Assembly: GCA_022791455.1 (NCBI GenBank) | Contig: JAAVZC010000014.1 | Coordinates: 209,119-273,118 of the forward strand | Direction: 5' to 3' | Length of the DNA: 64,000 bases | Origin: Eggerthellaceae bacterium | GTDB lineage: Bacteria; Actinomycetota; Coriobacteriia; Coriobacteriales; Eggerthellaceae | Shown: piece after piece, positions 26,170 through 33,317 of the stretch | How the letters are laid out: each line of letters opens with the position of its first letter | Numbering within the stretch: position 1 is the stretch's first letter | Notes under the pieces: generated by a model | What the model was told of the DNA's origin: nothing | The model's database searches: none | The model's input: the letters and a program-made list of their open reading frames with translations, nothing else | Translations under genes and position numbers: made by a program

Positions 26170-27384
26170 ATGATCAGACGCCCCCTGTACATGGACAAGC
26201 TGGAAAGCATGGACGCTCCCGACCTCGTTAAACTTCTGGTCGGAGTTCGTCGCTGCGGAAAGTCAACCCTTCTGCGGCAGCTACGAAACGACCTTGTTGA
26301 AAAGGGCGTCGACCCCTCCTTTCTAATCGAGGTCGACTTCGAGCTTCCCTCGAACAGTCACCTCACGGACAGCCGTATGTTCATCGAGCACGTAACGCGG
26401 CAGGCGAACAACCGAAAAGCGTACCTCTTCGTTGATGAAGTACAGGAGCTTGAAGATTGGCAACGCACCATAAACGGCCTGCGCGCAGAACTGGGTCTCA
26501 ATATTTATGCAACCGGCTCCAACGCCCGCATGTTCTCCGGTGAAAACATGACATACCTTTCAGGACGCTACCTTAGGCTCGAGGTCTTCCCGCTGTCCTT
26601 GGGCGAGCTATGCCAATTTACCGGCGCGGATCTCTCAAGTTCGAGGACTATTGAAGAATCCTACACGCAACTGGCTACCGAAGGGGGATTCCCCGCCGTA
26701 ACGCTCGCACCAACAGATGCTCTCAAAAACGCCATTGTCGACGGAATTTACGACTCAGTATTTATGAGGGACATTGTCCTGCGTGGGCGCATTCGCAACG
26801 AAGCCGCCTTCGCCCGCACTTCAACCTTCATCCTCGACAACATTGGCAATTCTGTCTCGGCAAACTCCATTGCAAACTCTTTGAAGGCCGCAGGTCACGG
26901 CGTAGCCGCCGAGACGGTGGACAATTATCTGACCCTGATGGAAAAGGCGCACCTGATCTACCGGTGCCCGCGGTTCGACATTAGAGGAAAAGAGATCCTG
27001 CGCACAAACGGGAAATACTACGTAGTAGACATGGGCCTAAGGCAACGGGCAATTGGCACAAAGCCCGGAAATCATGGCCATATTACCGAGAACATCGTGT
27101 TCTTGGAATTGCGCCGCCGTGGCTTCGAGGTTTACGTGGGCACTCTTCCAGACGCTGAAGTCGACTTCGTAGCTAAAAATTCGAAAGGCCAGATATACAT
27201 CCAGGTGAGCGAGACGGTGGTTGATCCCAACACATTGGCTCGAGAGCTAAAGCCCTTCGAGAAAATAAAGGACGGCTATCCGCAAGTGCTAATCACGAAA
27301 GACTATGCGGATTACTCCCAGAACGGCGTTCGCCATATCAATCTTTATGATTTCTTGCTTGAGAACCAAGCTCTTGAACAGTAA
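26170..27384 (+). CDS. AAA+ ATPase (AAA_14/DUF4143 type) with C-terminal PD-(D/E)xK-like region
   Basis: GVRRCGKS, LFVDEVQ, TGSNA, KYYVVDMGL, EVDFVA...YIQV; visibly more AT-rich codon usage. Confidence 0.9.
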   Translation: MIRRPLYMDKLESMDAPDLVKLLVGVRRCGKSTLLRQLRNDLVEKGVDPSFLIEVDFELPSNSHLTDSRMFIEHVTRQANNRKAYLFVDEVQELEDWQRTINGLRAELGLNIYATGSNARMFSGENMTYLSGRYLRLEVFPLSLGELCQFTGADLSSSRTIEESYTQLATEGGFPAVTLAPTDALKNAIVDGIYDSVFMRDIVLRGRIRNEAAFARTSTFILDNIGNSVSANSIANSLKAAGHGVAAETVDNYLTLMEKAHLIYRCPRFDIRGKEILRTNGKYYVVDMGLRQRAIGTKPGNHGHITENIVFLELRRRGFEVYVGTLPDAEVDFVAKNSKGQIYIQVSETVVDPNTLARELKPFEKIKDGYPQVLITKDYADYSQNGVRHINLYDFLLENQALEQ

Positions 27385-27468: not shown

Positions 27469-27758
27469 ACACCCAGGGGGTGGTGCCCGAGAACGAAGAG
27501 AGGAGGAGAGAGAGAGAACGGACACCGCGGGGGGATGCGGTGGAGGAGCTCCGTTCCTCTTTACGAGATTCATTATAGCGACGCATTATCCTCTGTCAAG
27601 GATAATTACTGACTTTTTTCCGACTAATGCGAACGGGGGCCTACAGGCCGGTCGTGACGGCGCACCTGGACGGAATGCCCTGCATGGGCGAGCAGCGCCT
27701 AAGCGCATATAATTGACGGGCACGCACCACTTAAGAACCATGTCGAAAGAAGGAGCCC

Positions 27759-28277
27759 GTGGCCAATACGCCCCAACATATTATTGCGAAGCGGCTGGTG
27801 AGCGCCTTGGCGCTGGTGGTGTGGGCCTGCTTCATCTTTGGGTTTTCCGGACAGAACGGCGGGGAGTCTGGCGGCCTGAGCGCGCGAGTGGCAGAGACGC
27901 TCGTGAGCTTCGGCGACCTGCTGACCGGCGTCTCTACCACCGGCGCGGCGCTGGATGCCGCCGTGGAAGCGCTGCAATTTCCCATTCGCAAAGCCGCCCA
28001 CATGACCGAATACGCCATCCTAGCCGTGCTGGCGCTGGTGCAACTGCGCCTATGGCCCGCCTTCAATGGCAACGAATCGCAGCTGCGGCGCGCTGTCGGC
28101 CTCGCATGGGGCTTCGCTGTGCTCTACGCCGCCACCGACGAGATCCACCAGCTATTCGTCCCCGGCCGCGCCGGCCTGTTCACCGACGTGATGATCGACG
28201 CCACCGGAGCCGCCCTCGGCCTGCTGTTGGCCGCCACCATCATCGTCTTGCGCACGCAGCGGAAACGCACCCCATAA
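27759..28277 (+). CDS. VanZ-family membrane protein
   Basis: IFGFSGQ; IRKAAHMTEYAILA; YAATDEIHQLFVPGR...DVMIDATG. Confidence 0.9.
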   Translation: MANTPQHIIAKRLVSALALVVWACFIFGFSGQNGGESGGLSARVAETLVSFGDLLTGVSTTGAALDAAVEALQFPIRKAAHMTEYAILAVLALVQLRLWPAFNGNESQLRRAVGLAWGFAVLYAATDEIHQLFVPGRAGLFTDVMIDATGAALGLLLAATIIVLRTQRKRTP

Positions 28278-28488
28278 AAGGGAAGGAGCCCCGAGAGGCT
28301 CCTTCTTGTCGCAGTTGCTTTTGCCAGGCGCGTTTTGCCTTGGTGCGGTTGTACTTCGCTTCGCCGTGCACGCCGTGGCCGCAGGCGAAGCCGTTGTAGC
28401 GCGGGTTCTGTGCCAGCGTGGCCTCGTCGGCCGACTGCCGCCACACCGCACCACTTTTCGGCACCGCACGCTTGTGCTTCTTGGACAT
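28240..28488 (-). CDS. Small basic protein (82 aa), candidate alternative ribosome rescue factor
   Basis: MSKKHKRAVPK...GHGVHGEAKYNRTKAKRAWQKQ; GGAGG RBS; TGcTACAAT extended -10 upstream; terminator inside the ORF. Confidence 0.7.
   Translation of the reverse strand: MSKKHKRAVPKSGAVWRQSADEATLAQNPRYNGFACGHGVHGEAKYNRTKAKRAWQKQLRQEGASRGSFPFMGCVSAACARR
28274..28305. terminator. Hairpin terminator downstream of vanZ-like gene and inside the small basic ORF
   Basis: GAAGGAGCC-CCGAGA-GGCTCCTTC; CCTTTTAT follows on the minus strand. Confidence 0.75.
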
Positions 28489-28543
28489 CCTCTCACCTCC
28501 TTCAATAACCGGGAATGCAAGAGCGCCATTGTAGCAGAACGCA

Positions 28544-29413
28544 CTACCCCCTTGCGCAGAGGGCGAGGCCCTGCAGCGTGAGGGCGGGATGCACGCGAGG
28601 ATGGCAAGCAAGATGCTCGGCCAGTTGCTGGGCGTTTTTGCCGGTGATAAGAACGGGAATAGACTCGGGCGCCTCTGCCGCCGATTCGCCGGACGCAGGC
28701 TCCACCGGACCGGCTCCCTTTCCGCCAGCCATCTCCGCCGCAAGCTCGGCACGGGCCATGGCAACCAAGCCGTCGATGCGGGCCACTTCGCCCCAGAACA
28801 CGCCAGACGCGATGGCCTCCTGGGTGGTCTTGCCCACCACCTGCCGCGGCGCCCCCGCCTCCACTTCCGGAAGCCGCGCCGCCACGTGAGAGAGCGTGCC
28901 CACCGAAGCCTCGAAGCCAGGTGCAATCATGCCACCCGCCAGCGCCCCCTTCGCATCCACCACGGTAATGGCCGTGGCTGCTTCCAGGTGTACCACGATA
29001 CACGGCGCGCCCGCCAGCTCGCGCGCCGCCAGCGCATCCGCGACCCGGTCGGCCCCCACTTCCGCGGGGTTCTTGCAGGCAATGGCCATGCCGGTCTTCA
29101 GCCGCGGCCCCATCACCAACACGCGCCCTCCGGTTTCCGCCGCCAGTGCTTCGCACCACACATCGGTAAGTGCCGGCACCACGCTTCCCAGCACCACGGA
29201 GGGAGCCGCCACAGAAAAGCCCATATCGCCCCCGCCCCACTGTGGTGCGAACGCCGCCAGGCCGCTGCGCAGCTGCATTCGCGCTTCGTCCGCCGTCAGG
29301 TGTTCCGGCGTGCTCGTTTGCCAGGAAGCCGCCAGCTCCCCATTCTCGAACAGCCCGAATTCCGTCACGGCGTTTTCCACCATCACCGTCAGCACCATCG
29401 TCGCTTGCGCCAT
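28544..29413 (-). CDS. Type III pantothenate kinase (CoaX)-like protein lacking ATP-binding motifs
   Basis: NPAEVGADR, GGMIAPG, VVGKTTQEAIASG retained; DxGNT reads MVENA and DFGTAT reads HLEAAT. Confidence 0.8.
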   Translation of the reverse strand: MAQATMVLTVMVENAVTEFGLFENGELAASWQTSTPEHLTADEARMQLRSGLAAFAPQWGGGDMGFSVAAPSVVLGSVVPALTDVWCEALAAETGGRVLVMGPRLKTGMAIACKNPAEVGADRVADALAARELAGAPCIVVHLEAATAITVVDAKGALAGGMIAPGFEASVGTLSHVAARLPEVEAGAPRQVVGKTTQEAIASGVFWGEVARIDGLVAMARAELAAEMAGGKGAGPVEPASGESAAEAPESIPVLITGKNAQQLAEHLACHPRVHPALTLQGLALCARG

Positions 29414-29488
29414 CAGTCCTCCTTTTCCGATTGGGTTATAGTAGCCCAATCGGATTGTTCGCGCGCCCACGGAAAGGACCCGTGCCTC

Positions 29489-29866
29489 ATGCTGTTCAAT
29501 TGCCTGTCCGTCGGTTGCGGCGGATTCATTGGCGCGGTACTGCGCTACTTATGCAGCCTCATCAAAATCCCTGTCGCCGATTTTCCCCTCATCACCCTAG
29601 GCATCAACATTGTCGGTAGCTTCGCCATCCTATTTCTGACCGGGCTTTTCGCAAAGTCGATGCCGCTCGACAGCCACCTTCTGCTCTTCTTACGCGTCGG
29701 GCTGTGCGGCGGCTTCACCACGTTTTCCACCTTTAGCGCCGAAACGCTGGGGCTTATCCAGCGGGGCAACCTGCTGGCCGCCTTCTTGTACGCCGCCCTC
29801 AGCTGCATCCTGTGCGTTGGCGCGGCGCTGCTGGGAGAAATTTCCGCCTCAGCTGTTGCGGGGTAG
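29489..29866 (+). CDS. crcB: Fluoride channel CrcB/FluC
   Basis: GGFIGAVLRY, NIVGSF, GLCGGFTTFSTF signature; 125 aa. Confidence 0.93.
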   Translation: MLFNCLSVGCGGFIGAVLRYLCSLIKIPVADFPLITLGINIVGSFAILFLTGLFAKSMPLDSHLLLFLRVGLCGGFTTFSTFSAETLGLIQRGNLLAAFLYAALSCILCVGAALLGEISASAVAG

Positions 29867-29885
29867 CCTCTTCTGCGCCCCTCCC

Positions 29886-31571
29886 CTATGCCGCGAACAC
29901 GGCAAGCATTGCCAGCACGACGCCCACGATGGATTCGCCCCCCAGCACGCCGGAGGCCACGATCAGGCCGCTTTCCTGCGCCTCCACTGTGCGGCGCTCG
30001 CGCTCTTCGGGCGACAGGTTGCGCATGCGCCGCTTCTGGACGGCGTCGTAGGCCACCTTCACCATGGCGCCCAGGAAGCCGCTGAAGGACATGTAGAAGG
30101 GCAGGTAGACGCCCAGGCCGATCATCATGGCAGGCAGTCCCACCCACTGCAGCGCCATGCCAGCAACAATGCCGATGACGAATGCAGGCACGCTGGGCAC
30201 GCCGGTAACCATAGTGGCCACCACGCTGGCCTGCGCTGCCACGAACTCCTTGCCCACGCCGAACGCATCGGGACCGTAGGCGCCCAACAGCAACACCACA
30301 ACGCCCACAGCCACGAAACTGCCCACCACCGCGCCAATGGCCTGGCCGGTCATCTGCGCCGCGGGGCTCGTGCCCAGCACATGGCCCGCCTTGAAGTCGT
30401 TCATCACGTCGCCCGCCAGCCCGCAAGCCACCGCCACGGACGCCGCAATAAGGAACAGGGCAGCCTGCGCCGTGCCAGAGAACGCCGCCACCAGCAAGAG
30501 CACGATGAGTCCAAAGATCTCCATAGGGTCGATGCCGGTCTGCCCCACGCTCTGGGCGCTCATGGCAGTGGTGACGAAGGTGAGCACCACCACCGCAACG
30601 CTCACCAGCGGCGACACTCCCAGCCCCAAGCAAAGCGCCAAAGCAGCCGCAGCCACCAACAACGCCGCAAGCCCAGCAAGGGAGCGGGAAGATCCTTCGC
30701 TGCGCTCAGGATGACGAGGTTGGTAATCGCTCTCATTCTCCTTCTTCGCCATAGCACGACGCAGGGCGCGCATGCCGCTGGGGAGGATGTTTTTGCAGAT
30801 GACGGTGAAGCCGCAGCCCATCATGAGGCCCATCCCCAGGCTGGACACAATACCGCCGGCCGCTTCCACGCTCCAGAGCCCCGCGGCAGTTCCACCTACC
30901 ACCAGGCCAAAGTTCGCGAACACCGCACCGGCGAACCATGCCACCACAGCACCCGTGCCCACCAGAAAGCCCACCGCCAGCATCATGGGCGAGTTGTAGA
31001 TGCCGAACGCCACACCGGGAATGCTCACATTCCCGAAAAAGATAGCGGGTATGCCAGGCACCAGGTTCTTCGCCGCCGTATACAGCCCAGCCAGCCCCAT
31101 GGTGCCGAACAGCTTCTTCCCCACTTTGCCGCCAGCCGACCCAGCCTTCAGTGTCTGCGCCGCCGCCGTGCCCATGGGAAATTCCAGCCGCGCCTCCTCG
31201 ATAAAGTATCGACGCAAAAGGCCCGTGCACACCAATCCCAGCGCCACGCCCCCCAGCGTCACCACCAGAATTTCCGGCACAGAAATCTCGTCCGCCAACC
31301 CCAGCATCCACGCGCCAGGAATGGTGAACGCCAGGCCGCCGGCCACCATGGCGCCGGAGGACATGATAGTGTGGGTGACGTTGGCCTCGTTGAGCGAGCG
31401 GCTGCCCAGCGCCCGCAGGAAGAACAGCGAGATGATGGCCGCGAAAATTATGGGCCAGGGAAGAGCGCCCAGCTTGAGCGCCGTGTACACCGACGATGCG
31501 GTGATGATGGCGCAGCCCACCAAACCAATGATGCAGCCGCGCGGGGTCAGTTGCCCCTTGAGCGAATCCAT
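29886..31571 (-). CDS. OPT/YSL-family oligopeptide transporter
   Basis: YTALKLG, AGGLAFTIPG, GDVMNDFKAG, ASGVLGGES motifs; many TM helices. Confidence 0.88.
   Translation of the reverse strand: MDSLKGQLTPRGCIIGLVGCAIITASSVYTALKLGALPWPIIFAAIISLFFLRALGSRSLNEANVTHTIMSSGAMVAGGLAFTIPGAWMLGLADEISVPEILVVTLGGVALGLVCTGLLRRYFIEEARLEFPMGTAAAQTLKAGSAGGKVGKKLFGTMGLAGLYTAAKNLVPGIPAIFFGNVSIPGVAFGIYNSPMMLAVGFLVGTGAVVAWFAGAVFANFGLVVGGTAAGLWSVEAAGGIVSSLGMGLMMGCGFTVICKNILPSGMRALRRAMAKKENESDYQPRHPERSEGSSRSLAGLAALLVAAAALALCLGLGVSPLVSVAVVVLTFVTTAMSAQSVGQTGIDPMEIFGLIVLLLVAAFSGTAQAALFLIAASVAVACGLAGDVMNDFKAGHVLGTSPAAQMTGQAIGAVVGSFVAVGVVVLLLGAYGPDAFGVGKEFVAAQASVVATMVTGVPSVPAFVIGIVAGMALQWVGLPAMMIGLGVYLPFYMSFSGFLGAMVKVAYDAVQKRRMRNLSPEERERRTVEAQESGLIVASGVLGGESIVGVVLAMLAVFAA
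30690..30715. repeat. Family B REP inside the OPT coding sequence
   Basis: AGATCCTTCGCTGCGCTCAGGATGAC, translated on the minus strand as (R)HPERSEGS. Confidence 0.88.
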
Positions 31572-31778
31572 ATGAGTCTCCTTGCCTATGCCCGCTCCCC
31601 CTTGTGCCCCGCAGGGCGAGAAGTCGGGCTACGCCTTAAAGATGCTAAAAGTGTAAGGGAGCGACATGCGCCTGAGCAGCGAAACCCGTCTCGCGCTCGC
31701 CAACGGCCACGTCCCCTCGGCGCACAATAATGATGCCTTGGCTGGAGCGGGCCGGTCCGAGCAATTCCGCCGTGCAAA

Positions 31779-31993
31779 ATGGCAACAAACGCACGATGCG
31801 TAACACCTCGTCCCAAGGAAGCGGGTAAACCGACCGCGAAATGGCAACAAATACATGAAATGCAACAGCGAGACTCTGAGAAGCGCCTGTCTGCGCCGCA
31901 ACCTCGTTACATTTCGTGCATTTGTTGCCATAAGCCGCCTTTAAGACGAGGTGCTGCGAGGCTATCGGTTACATATCATGTATTTGTCGCCAC
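31779..31993. repeat. Four 26-bp units, two direct plus two inverted (family E)
   Basis: Approximate consensus ATGGCAACAAAYRCAYGAWRYGYAAC at 31779 and 31841 (+), 31906 and 31968 (-); 62-bp period within each pair. Confidence 0.85.
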
Positions 31994-32036
31994 AAACAGT
32001 GCCCGAAAGCACCTCGCTCACCCCACATTCAAACTC

Positions 32037-33317
32037 CTACACTGCGGCCAGGGCTTGGTCCAGGTCGGCGATGAGGTCTTCGGCCGCTTCGATGCCGCAG
32101 GAGAGGCGGATGAGGTCGGGGCCAATGCCCGCCGCCGCCAGCTCTTCGTCGTTCATCTGCCGGTGCGTGGCGTTGGCCGGGTGAAGCACGCAGGTGCGCG
32201 CATCGGCCACGTGGGTGGCAATCTGGCCCAGCTTCAAGTTCGCCATCAGGGTCTCGGCCGCCGCACGACCGCCCGCAACGCCGAAGCTCACCACGCCGCA
32301 GCTCCCGTCGGGCAAGTACTTCTCTGCCAGCTCGAATTCCGCATCGCCCTCAAGCGAGGGGTGCCGCACCCAGGCCACCTTCGGGTGCGCCGCCAGCCAT
32401 TCGGCCACGCGACGGCCGTTTTCCGCATGGCGCGCCATGCGCAGATGGAGGCTCTCCAGCCCCAAGTTGATCAAAAACGCGTTCTGCGGCGACTGAATGG
32501 AGCCCAGGTCGCGCATCAGCTGTGCGGTGGCCTTCGTGATAAACGCCCCCTCAAGCCCGAAGCGCTCGGTGTACACCACGCCGTGGTAGCTCTCGTCCGG
32601 CTGGCACAGGCCCGGGAACTTCTCCGGATACGCCGTCCAGTCGAACTTGCCGCCGTCCACAATCACGCCGCCCACGCTGGCGGCGTGGCCGTCCATGTAC
32701 TTGGTGGTGGAGTGGGTCACAATGTCGGCGCCCCACTCGATGGGCCGGCACAGCACCGGCGTGGGGAAGGTGTTGTCCACAATCAGCGGCACGCCGTGGG
32801 CATGGGCCGCGGCGGCGAAACGTTCGATGTCCAGCACCGCCAGCGCCGGGTTCGCGATAGTCTCACCGAACACGCACTTGGTGTTGGGACGGAAAGCGGC
32901 CGCCAGCTCTTCGTCGGTGCAATGGGGGTCCACAAACGTGCACTCCAGCCCCATGCGCCCCATGGTATGGGCCAACAGGTTGTACGTGCCGCCGTAAATG
33001 GCCGACGACGCCACCACATGGTCGCCCGCGCCCGCAATGTTGAACACGGCGAAGAAATTCGCCGCCTGCCCCGAGGAGGTAAGCATGGCCGCCGTGCCTC
33101 CTTCCAACTCGGCGATCTTCGCCGCCACGGCATCGTTGGTAGGGTTCGCCAGGCGGGTGTAGAAATAGCCAGATTCCTCCAGGTCGAACAGGCGCCCCAT
33201 GTGCTCGGAGGTGTCGTACTTCCAGGTGGTGTTCTGGTATATGGGAATCTGTCGCGGGTCGCCATCGGCCGGGCGATAGCCCCCCTGCACGCAAATAGTG
33301 TCAAGAGACTGAGTCAT
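32037..33317 (-). CDS. metY: O-acetylhomoserine aminocarboxypropyltransferase (sulfhydrylase)
   Basis: FYTRLANPT, GETIANP, IVDNTF, HSTTKYMDGH PLP site, LIRLSCGIE. Confidence 0.92.
   Translation of the reverse strand: MTQSLDTICVQGGYRPADGDPRQIPIYQNTTWKYDTSEHMGRLFDLEESGYFYTRLANPTNDAVAAKIAELEGGTAAMLTSSGQAANFFAVFNIAGAGDHVVASSAIYGGTYNLLAHTMGRMGLECTFVDPHCTDEELAAAFRPNTKCVFGETIANPALAVLDIERFAAAAHAHGVPLIVDNTFPTPVLCRPIEWGADIVTHSTTKYMDGHAASVGGVIVDGGKFDWTAYPEKFPGLCQPDESYHGVVYTERFGLEGAFITKATAQLMRDLGSIQSPQNAFLINLGLESLHLRMARHAENGRRVAEWLAAHPKVAWVRHPSLEGDAEFELAEKYLPDGSCGVVSFGVAGGRAAAETLMANLKLGQIATHVADARTCVLHPANATHRQMNDEELAAAGIGPDLIRLSCGIEAAEDLIADLDQALAAV

Follow-up and report, generated by a model that had tools for sequence, protein, structure and literature searches.

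We describe a dead paralog of CoaX, a type III pantothenate kinase (PanK), encoded at 28544-29413 of the window, a 64,000-nucleotide stretch of an Eggerthellaceae genome (contig JAAVZC010000014.1). The protein, which we call CoaX2, has lost the motifs that handle Mg-ATP and has kept the fold and the pantothenate-binding motifs. Its motif pattern and substitution rates identify CoaX2 as a conserved pseudokinase and not a product of decay, and they make it very probable that it is a selected, non-catalytic protein of PanK fold. The reading that we favor, and hold to be probable, is that a module for vitamin B5 salvage, with an importer of the OPT family, includes CoaX2 as a non-catalytic component that binds pantothenate and serves as sensor or regulator. 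That CoaX2 acts within a B5 uptake module together with the OPT protein is, taken alone, about an even call.

Identity and fold of CoaX2

28544-29413, minus strand: coaX2, type III pantothenate-kinase-like pseudokinase of 289 amino acids, identified by its stop-free open reading frame, profile, alignment and fold.
29418-29424, minus strand: Shine-Dalgarno sequence AAGGAGG of coaX2, 4 nt ahead of the ATG.

A sequence-only reading of this stretch had taken the gene for an intact, full-length homolog colinear with type III PanK. The homology is borne out. The Pfam profile Pan_kinase (PF03309) matches the stop-free 289-residue protein over profile positions 4-204 of 205 with 148.7 bits (E-value 2.6e-43, cut-off 24.7), and the match to TIGR00671 also lies above the curated threshold (149.2 bits, cut-off 58.2). 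None of the NCBIfam equivalog models for type III PanK scores CoaX2 above its cut-off, the best being NF009855 with 158.4 against 233. The AlphaFold2 model, made with 79 homologs, is confident (pLDDT 91.9, pTM 0.90) and shows the two-domain ASKHA fold of CoaX. Its top Foldseek matches are type III PanKs only, with TM-scores of 0.87-0.92 normalized to the target, and the best matches in the PDB are 2h3g, 3djc, 9b78 (Mycobacterium tuberculosis CoaX, rank 5) and 3bf3. By profile and by fold, CoaX2 belongs to the type III PanK family. The colinearity holds along the protein except at two inserts, at about residues 55-70 and 230-250, which are modeled with low confidence. The protein is acidic overall, with an isoelectric point (pI) of ~5.

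Loss of the ATP motifs and retention of the pantothenate pocket

Residue correspondence was taken from Bacillus anthracis CoaX (2h3g), M. tuberculosis CoaX (9b78), 94 homologs and the canonical CoaX of the same genome. In HMMER pairwise alignments to the two structures, PHOSPHATE 1 of CoaX2 reads MVENA where the family has DxGNT, and PHOSPHATE 2 reads HLEAAT where the family has DxGTAT/DFGTAT. The ADENOSINE motif reads ITGK opposite the ATGG of the genome's own canonical copy. The pantothenate-site motifs GADR, GGMIAPG and GKTT are intact. The structure and paralog alignments thus confirm what had been read from the letters, namely MVENA, HLEAAT and TGK in place of the ATP motifs with GADR and GGMIAPG kept. 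In the Thermotoga maritima and Pseudomonas aeruginosa structures, the pantothenate-binding elements are GxDR, whose Asp is the catalytic base, GGxIxPG and the Thr that G[KR]xT contributes in trans. The PHOSPHATE and ADENOSINE residues are presumably the ATP contacts, going by published structures and the motif names.

The loss is confined to few columns. Among the 53 columns conserved in at least 85% of 64 canonical CoaX sequences, the clade with dead motifs (15 sequences) retains 46. The seven changed columns are D11, T15, R32, D142, G144, T145 and G259, and six of them, all except R32, fall within the PHOSPHATE 1, PHOSPHATE 2 and ADENOSINE motifs, as expected from the earlier claim that the loss is coordinated. 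G120-A-D-R123, G160-G-x-I-x-P-G166 and the GKTT threonine (T197) do not vary among the 15 members. In PHOSPHATE 1, the Asp is replaced by Met in 15/15 and the Thr by Ala in 12/15. PHOSPHATE 2 has His (15/15), Glu (15/15) and Ala (14/15) at its changed positions, and the ADENOSINE motif reads TG[E/Q/K]. The replacements in the genus of the window's species are D11M, T15A, D142H, G144E, T145A and G259K. MVENA is the correct reading for this gene, but it does not extend to the clade: its Glu occurs only in this species and three other sequences, and 11 of the 15 members read MVGNA or MVGNS.

Judged from these alignments, the pattern of motif loss is not chance. It is the signature of a protein that gave up the handling of Mg-ATP and retained both the fold and the pocket for its ligand. 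We infer from it that CoaX2 lacks kinase activity and binds pantothenate.

Conservation and selection

The dead motifs are shared beyond this genome, by 14 orthologs with 57-76% identity. Thirteen database proteins, 57-68% identical to CoaX2, read M-V-G/E-N-A/S and HLE[AV]AT, and the orthologs of two sister species, G001 and G002 (76% and 67% identity over the BLAST-aligned part), carry the same dead motifs. The reading frame is unbroken in the three species and in 11 metagenomic variants. Across the three genomes, the ratio of nonsynonymous to synonymous substitution rates (dN/dS, Nei-Gojobori) of coaX2 is 0.23-0.29 at a synonymous divergence (dS) of 1.0-1.3, with bootstrap 95% bounds of 0.16-0.39; the canonical copies from the same genomes give 0.13-0.18. 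Neutral decay is therefore excluded, as is the possibility that CoaX2 is the sole PanK of the cell, because a canonical coaX is present, the orthologs share the dead motifs and the dN/dS values, with upper bounds of at most 0.39, are low. The proposal of a selected non-catalytic role, made from the sequence in the first place, is supported in part, by the coordinated loss and by purifying selection.

The canonical CoaX and the coenzyme A pathway

We searched the genome (2.6 Mb in 15 contigs, 93% complete) for the other enzymes of pantothenate and coenzyme A (CoA) synthesis. A second, canonical coaX, whose presence had been proposed as a check, lies on a separate contig, C12. It encodes a protein of 252 amino acids that scores 202 bits against Pan_kinase, has all the motifs (DIGNT, GSDR, DFGTAT, GGIIAPG and ATGG) and is 36% identical to CoaX2. 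CoaBC is also present. Neither type I PanK (CoaA) nor PanC was found by search of this 93% complete genome. In the same sequence, PanB (PF02548) gave no match, with the same profile matching in 11 control genomes, and Dop/PafA (PF03136) gave none, with the control matching in Corynebacterium glutamicum. Type II PanK (PF03630) had no match in the genome and none anywhere in the control set either. With type I PanK, PanC and PanB not found, the organism appears to be auxotrophic for pantothenate and to hold a single canonical CoaX in addition to CoaX2. By its intact motifs, the canonical coaX on the other contig is the housekeeping kinase, and CoaX2 is not the pantothenate kinase of the cell.

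The OPT transporter partner

29886-31571, minus strand: OPT-family transporter of 561 amino acids (PF03169, 175.6 bits over residues 7-556), the conserved partner of the coaX2 lineage.

The gene for an OPT-family protein adjoins the second-copy coaX in 10 of 14 loci examined. In a sample of 201 genomes of the class, it does so in 60 of the 63 OPT-bearing genomes; 58 of these 60 pairs are head-to-head and one is tandem, and in the window's genome crcB lies between the two genes (these adjacency counts were read by eye from coordinate tables and not computed by script). Among named Collinsella, Olsenella and Eggerthellaceae loci, the best 80 of a genome-collection scan, OPT adjoins coaX2 in 70, and three of the other ten have no flanking sequence. 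The samples are phylogenetically clustered, with Collinsella dominating.

OPT and PanC also exclude each other in their distribution. Among 41 related genomes, OPT is present in none of the 10 PanC-positive and in 19 of the 31 PanC-negative ones (Fisher p 0.0007, which overstates the significance, since relatedness makes the genomes non-independent). This mutual exclusion fits a vitamin B5 salvage transporter, and it makes the OPT protein a candidate for the import of pantothenate or of a close or CoA precursor. If so, vitamin B5 would add a new class of substrate to those of bacterial OPT proteins.

No linkage of OPT with PanK was found beyond the class, the best 80 loci of the genome-collection scan being all from Coriobacteriia and a protein search giving close relatives only. 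The only case from Firmicutes rests on a 2011 survey, in which a pantothenate kinase gene adjoins the Clostridium cellulolyticum member of OPT subcluster 4E, a subcluster of Collinsella and C. cellulolyticum proteins (PMC3061005). The survey did not draw the connection between OPT and pantothenate kinase. Yeast Opt1 was recently demonstrated to import CoA precursors (PMC12406275), and a recent review names the transport of pantothenate and its precursors as a key gap (PMC12570885).

A structured leader RNA upstream of OPT

31586-31632, minus strand: leader hairpin of the OPT mRNA, genus-specific variant (covariance-model match 31569-31644).
31578-31583, minus strand: ribosome-binding site AAGGAG of OPT, after the leader hairpin.

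The 5' leader of the OPT mRNA holds a conserved element that consists of GUAACCCGACU, a variable hairpin with an apical part of 3-55 nt and GCGGAUAUACG; the ribosome-binding site lies 1-3 nt beyond it. The leaders compared include L052-L149 (for example, L098:3893-3979). RNAalifold reproduces the manually drawn structure exactly, with GUA/UAC followed by the internal loop AC/AUA, then CCG/CGG, a bulged A and the variable stem. In this structure 99.5% of the cells pair, compared with 38-71% in slid controls. Four pairs show double changes; at one of them, 15 sequences have UA and 14 have CG. Rfam gave no relevant family for the OPT leader (31400-32300 and a Collinsella leader), and the pan motif RF01749 had no match at E-values up to 10 in the genome or the leaders.

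A covariance model of the leader finds one copy per genome, always directly 5' of OPT. The RNA is present in 11 of the 41 relatives, exactly those with both an OPT ortholog and a CoaX of the second-copy clade. In a 150-genome sample of the class it is present in 42, all within three families, namely Eggerthellaceae, an Atopobiaceae-type family (Olsenella) and Coriobacteriaceae (Collinsella). It is absent 5' of OPT where the genome has only the canonical CoaX, in G010 and in the four tested of six such loci. One leader-bearing OPT has no adjacent CoaX2; a CoaX2-type gene lies on another contig of the same genome. The association of RNA and CoaX2 is suggestive of a protein-RNA pair. Their joint loss could, however, be a single deletion, because the RNA is located between the two genes. 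We regard the leader as a candidate for a new riboswitch or protein-binding operator.

History of the second-copy clade

In a tree of 48 CoaX homologs from the 41 related genomes, the canonical CoaX copies follow species groups, and all 12 second copies, from 12 genomes, form one clade (support 100/98). The sisters of this clade are sole-copy CoaX proteins with canonical PHOSPHATE motifs and TGG, from G008 and G031. The single CoaX of G008 (C6:6957-7595; L016/L061) has DIGNT and ATGG and belongs to the OPT-linked lineage, and its genome has the leader RNA. G008 likely represents the ancestral state, in which an active kinase was already coupled to OPT and the RNA. In the 201-genome sample, two CoaX copies are confined to the three families named above, all of one order, with the exception of G175 (f15), which has two equal-scoring copies on one contig.

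TGG is found in none of the OPT-adjacent second copies from two-copy genomes, which have TG followed by a residue other than Gly; a metagenomic clade member, P0041, whose genomic context is unread, reads LTGG. The canonical Arg32 is also given up across the clade. Parsimony on a tree of 135 sequences, with motif columns removed, places seven losses of a catalytic Asp, 5-6 of them within the second-copy clade. Other dead variants adjoining OPT read QLGNA/DFNSAT, TIENA/DFGAAT and VVENG/GMGTST. The repeated Asp losses and the dead variants in intact genes thus suggest that catalysis was repeatedly dispensable in this lineage. On the evidence of the trees, the CoaX2 lineage is independent of M. 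tuberculosis CoaX and arose inside Coriobacteriales.

Two variants stand apart from these. The second CoaX of G009 (C7:173171-173845, L020) reads DIRNT ... LVGQ, in a genome with neither an OPT gene nor the leader RNA. Its changes, Gly to Arg in DxGNT and the loss of TGG, affect the same two positions that inactivate M. tuberculosis CoaX, and it may be a convergent pseudokinase in yet another context. Two OPT-adjacent CoaX2 genes of Eggerthellaceae (L070:3026-3922 and L084:3000-3998) read GADI for GADR and xAGE for xTGG. In these genes the pantothenate motif is without its Arg and both catalytic Asp remain, the reverse of the window's coaX2.

The derived state in the Parvibacter-like genus

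This genome and the sister species G001 and G002 make up a Parvibacter-like genus, which by the names of its closest OPT relatives (87-90% identity) is Parvibacter or near it. In the CoaX tree, a long stem (1.17 substitutions per site) leads to the trio, whose tips are short. In all three species, the internal loop of the leader is closed into a helix, GCCCG/CGGGC, by an A-to-G change on the 5' side and by A-to-G and U-to-C changes on the 3' side. Their leaders have the lowest model scores, 45-48 bits compared with 48-81 elsewhere. The gene order differs from species to species: coaX2 and OPT are in tandem in G001, crcB is inserted in this genome, and coaX2 lies ~8 kb from OPT in G002. In the protein, five of eight clade-specific basic residues are lost and four new ones are gained. 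Other lineages with a dead CoaX2 retain the canonical RNA and the head-to-head order. The altered RNA, order and protein therefore make the window's coaX2 the most derived member of the clade. The CoaX2 of this genus may have shifted function again while under constraint.

A proposed role for CoaX2 and its alternatives

According to the reading that we prefer, CoaX2 comes from a Coriobacteriales CoaX lineage with genetic coupling to OPT and its structured leader RNA. Beside a canonical CoaX, the coupled copy is in every case without the second Gly of the ADENOSINE motif. The lineage lost the aspartates of PHOSPHATE 1 and 2 repeatedly, keeping the pantothenate pocket and the fold, and in the Parvibacter-like genus the loss of catalytic residues is complete. 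CoaX2 would still bind pantothenate without phosphorylating it and would serve as a ligand-binding sensor or regulator in a B5 module whose importer is OPT.

Several observations weigh against this reading. Most members of the clade keep both aspartates, as does a Collinsella aerofaciens CoaX2 that reads DVGNT/DLGTTT/TGD, and could be real kinases. Instead of a loss, the change from D-x-G to M/H-x-E might in principle mean that the carboxylate has migrated. A second copy occurs without any OPT in genus g8 (G009 and four sister species) and in G017. In the Parvibacter-like genus, the linkage of coaX2 and OPT is loosening, and the orientation of coaX2 is reversed with respect to the ancestral head-to-head arrangement. 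In addition, 40 positions that the other clade members conserve, the five lost basic residues among them, are changed in the CoaX2 of this genus; therefore, its role may differ from theirs.

A more specific version, possible if unlikely, is that CoaX2 is a PyrR-like, pantothenate-responsive RNA-binding regulator that arose from a moonlighting kinase and sets the translation of OPT, which would be a vitamin B5 importer not recognized before. CoaX2 would bind the hairpin with the internal loop and bulged A that ends 1-3 nt 5' of the OPT ribosome-binding site. The kinase residues would have become dispensable once a separate CoaX catalyzed the reaction, and in the Parvibacter-like genus the closure of the RNA loop and the remodeling of the protein would have gone together. 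Consistent with such a regulator, the leader is present as one copy per genome, occurs only together with OPT and a CoaX of the second-copy type, and is absent from OPT genes where the genome has canonical CoaX alone. Regulator-target pairs typically have the head-to-head order, and the clade has eight specific basic positions, of which five are lost in the one genus with the altered RNA loop. On the other hand, CoaX2 is acidic and the OPT-linked clade has no net basic charge. In addition, the RNA and coaX2 are physically adjacent, and the RNA could be a small riboswitch.

It is improbable that CoaX2 works instead as a regulatory or structural subunit of the canonical CoaX, contributing half of a shared pantothenate site in a heterodimer or mixed hexamer and tuning its activity, although a regulatory partner of CoaX had also been suggested from the sequence alone. 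Each type III PanK site spans both subunits of the dimer, the trans-acting GKTT Thr (T197) is conserved in 15/15 and a canonical partner is present in every genome that holds a second copy. Heteromeric PanK complexes with a degenerate subunit are also known in apicomplexans (PMC8366970). However, coaX and the second copy are never neighbors, the second copy is tied to OPT, and CoaX2 is just 36% identical to its would-be partner. None of the results here favors a CoaX heterodimer, and the gene context points to OPT and the leader RNA instead.

Still less probable is a rewired enzyme, in which the carboxylates have moved from i to i+2 (M-x-E and H-x-E), His142 is a new ligand or base, and CoaX2 uses another donor or carries out another reaction on pantothenate. 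The replacements are non-random, with H142 and E144 in 15/15, and the catalytic-base Asp of GADR is kept. However, both phosphate-loop Thr and the loop Gly144 are gone, and E13 is found in only 4/15 orthologs. Other lineages of the clade lose the same sites through different residues (V/G, Q/N, T, S and N/A), which fits dispensable catalysis and not new chemistry. Least credible, and already disfavored by the sequence evidence, is a relic without any function of its own that chance or weak selection has left intact (selection on the expression of the small open reading frame 3' of it would be an example): CoaX2 evolves ~1.5-2x faster than the canonical copy and its OPT linkage is eroding in this genus, but its frame is intact across three species and the 11 variants at these dS values, the dN/dS upper bounds are well below 1, most family-conserved sites (46/53) are kept and the model is confidently folded.

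The surrounding locus

29489-29866, plus strand: crcB, fluoride channel family, between coaX2 and OPT in this genome only, interrupting the ancestral pair.
29427-29453, no strand assigned: perfect 9-N9-9 palindrome with a TATAAC/TACTAT box in the spacer, just 5' of the coaX2 ribosome-binding site, between crcB and coaX2.
28240-28488, minus strand: small basic open reading frame directly 3' of coaX2, on the same strand.

An Rfam scan of 27500-30500 gave nothing relevant, and the fluoride riboswitch (crcB motif) had no match at E-values up to 1 in the 75-bp region 5' of crcB. No palindrome like that at 29427-29453 arose in 100 shuffles. We dropped it as a regulatory lead because it is not conserved, being absent 5' of coaX2 in both sister species and in a metagenomic ortholog. 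The small open reading frame is also found 3' of coaX2 in G002 (L051:7266-7538). There is no terminator-like site between it and coaX2, the first being at 28282-28305, and the two may be co-transcribed. Two genes from coaX2, a gene for an AAA_14/DUF4143 ATPase (26170-27384, plus strand) lies in a segment with a G+C content of 0.54, compared with 0.63-0.65 around it; this segment is probably a separate insertion.

Significance

As a precedent for a pseudokinase of the type III PanK fold there is one characterized case, M. tuberculosis CoaX (2024; PMC11626117). CoaX2 would represent a second, independent and more radical lineage of type III pseudo-PanKs, and one that is widespread among the Coriobacteriales of human and animal guts (Collinsella, Olsenella and Eggerthellaceae). 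Databases label this lineage "type III pantothenate kinase", and counting coaX genes would overstate the PanK capacity of these taxa in metabolic reconstructions. Its partners, OPT and the leader RNA, bear on how B5-auxotrophic gut bacteria import the vitamin. The lineage also bears on the role of a dead kinase that binds pantothenate outside the Pup system, and on what the OPT leader RNA senses or binds.

Comparison with known systems

CoaX2 shares with the canonical CoaX of B. anthracis (2h3g) and T. maritima (3bex/3bf3) the family, fold, length, GxDR, GGxIxPG and the dimer-contributed Thr. It differs from them in the failure of the three ATP/Mg motifs and in scoring below the NCBIfam equivalog cut-offs.

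In PyrR-type regulators, a protein of an enzyme family binds a leader hairpin in response to a metabolite. The analogy would be one of working principle only, in that the homolog of an enzyme keeps its ligand pocket and an uptake or synthesis gene for the same metabolite has a structured leader. Unlike PyrR, CoaX2 is acidic (pI ~5), and RNA binding by it is a proposal. The pan RNA motif (RF01749) is a hairpin with a conserved bulged A that is associated with pantothenate genes and was proposed to bind a dimeric protein (PMC2864571). The OPT leader is likewise a hairpin with a conserved bulged A, but it precedes a transporter gene and not panBCD and, as stated above, does not match RF01749.

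Inactive PanK homologs include the kinase domain of human PANK4, the type II-like PanK of B. anthracis and the apicomplexan heteromers (cited in PMC11626117 and PMC8366970). These cases resemble CoaX2 in that a degenerate protein of PanK fold is retained beside an active one, and they differ from it in being type II PanKs with other partners and functions.

The closest parallel is M. tuberculosis CoaX (Rv3600c; PDB 9b78, 9cku), which binds pantothenate without phosphorylating it, has a sensor role and modulates the Dop-dependent depupylation of PanB (PMC11626117). Its inactivity is due to R8, at the Gly of DxGNT, and H229; it keeps both catalytic Asp and regains ATPase activity with two reversions (PMC11626117). 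Like CoaX2, it has the type III PanK fold, is encoded by a second PanK-type gene beside an active kinase and keeps the pantothenate site. The Gly position of PHOSPHATE 1 is changed in both, to R8 there and to E13 in CoaX2, and the ADENOSINE TGG is changed to H229 there and to K259 in CoaX2, a correspondence taken from motif position. Unlike M. tuberculosis CoaX, to which it is 28% identical, CoaX2 has both Asp, both Thr and the loop Gly replaced. The search of the 93% complete genome for Dop/PafA and PanB found neither, so we rejected the Dop/PanB mechanism for CoaX2, to which it cannot apply. The gene context differs as well, panCD for M. tuberculosis CoaX and OPT with the leader RNA for CoaX2. 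By analogy, the pantothenate-sensor role suggested here for CoaX2 would have a published precedent in M. tuberculosis CoaX (PMC11626117).

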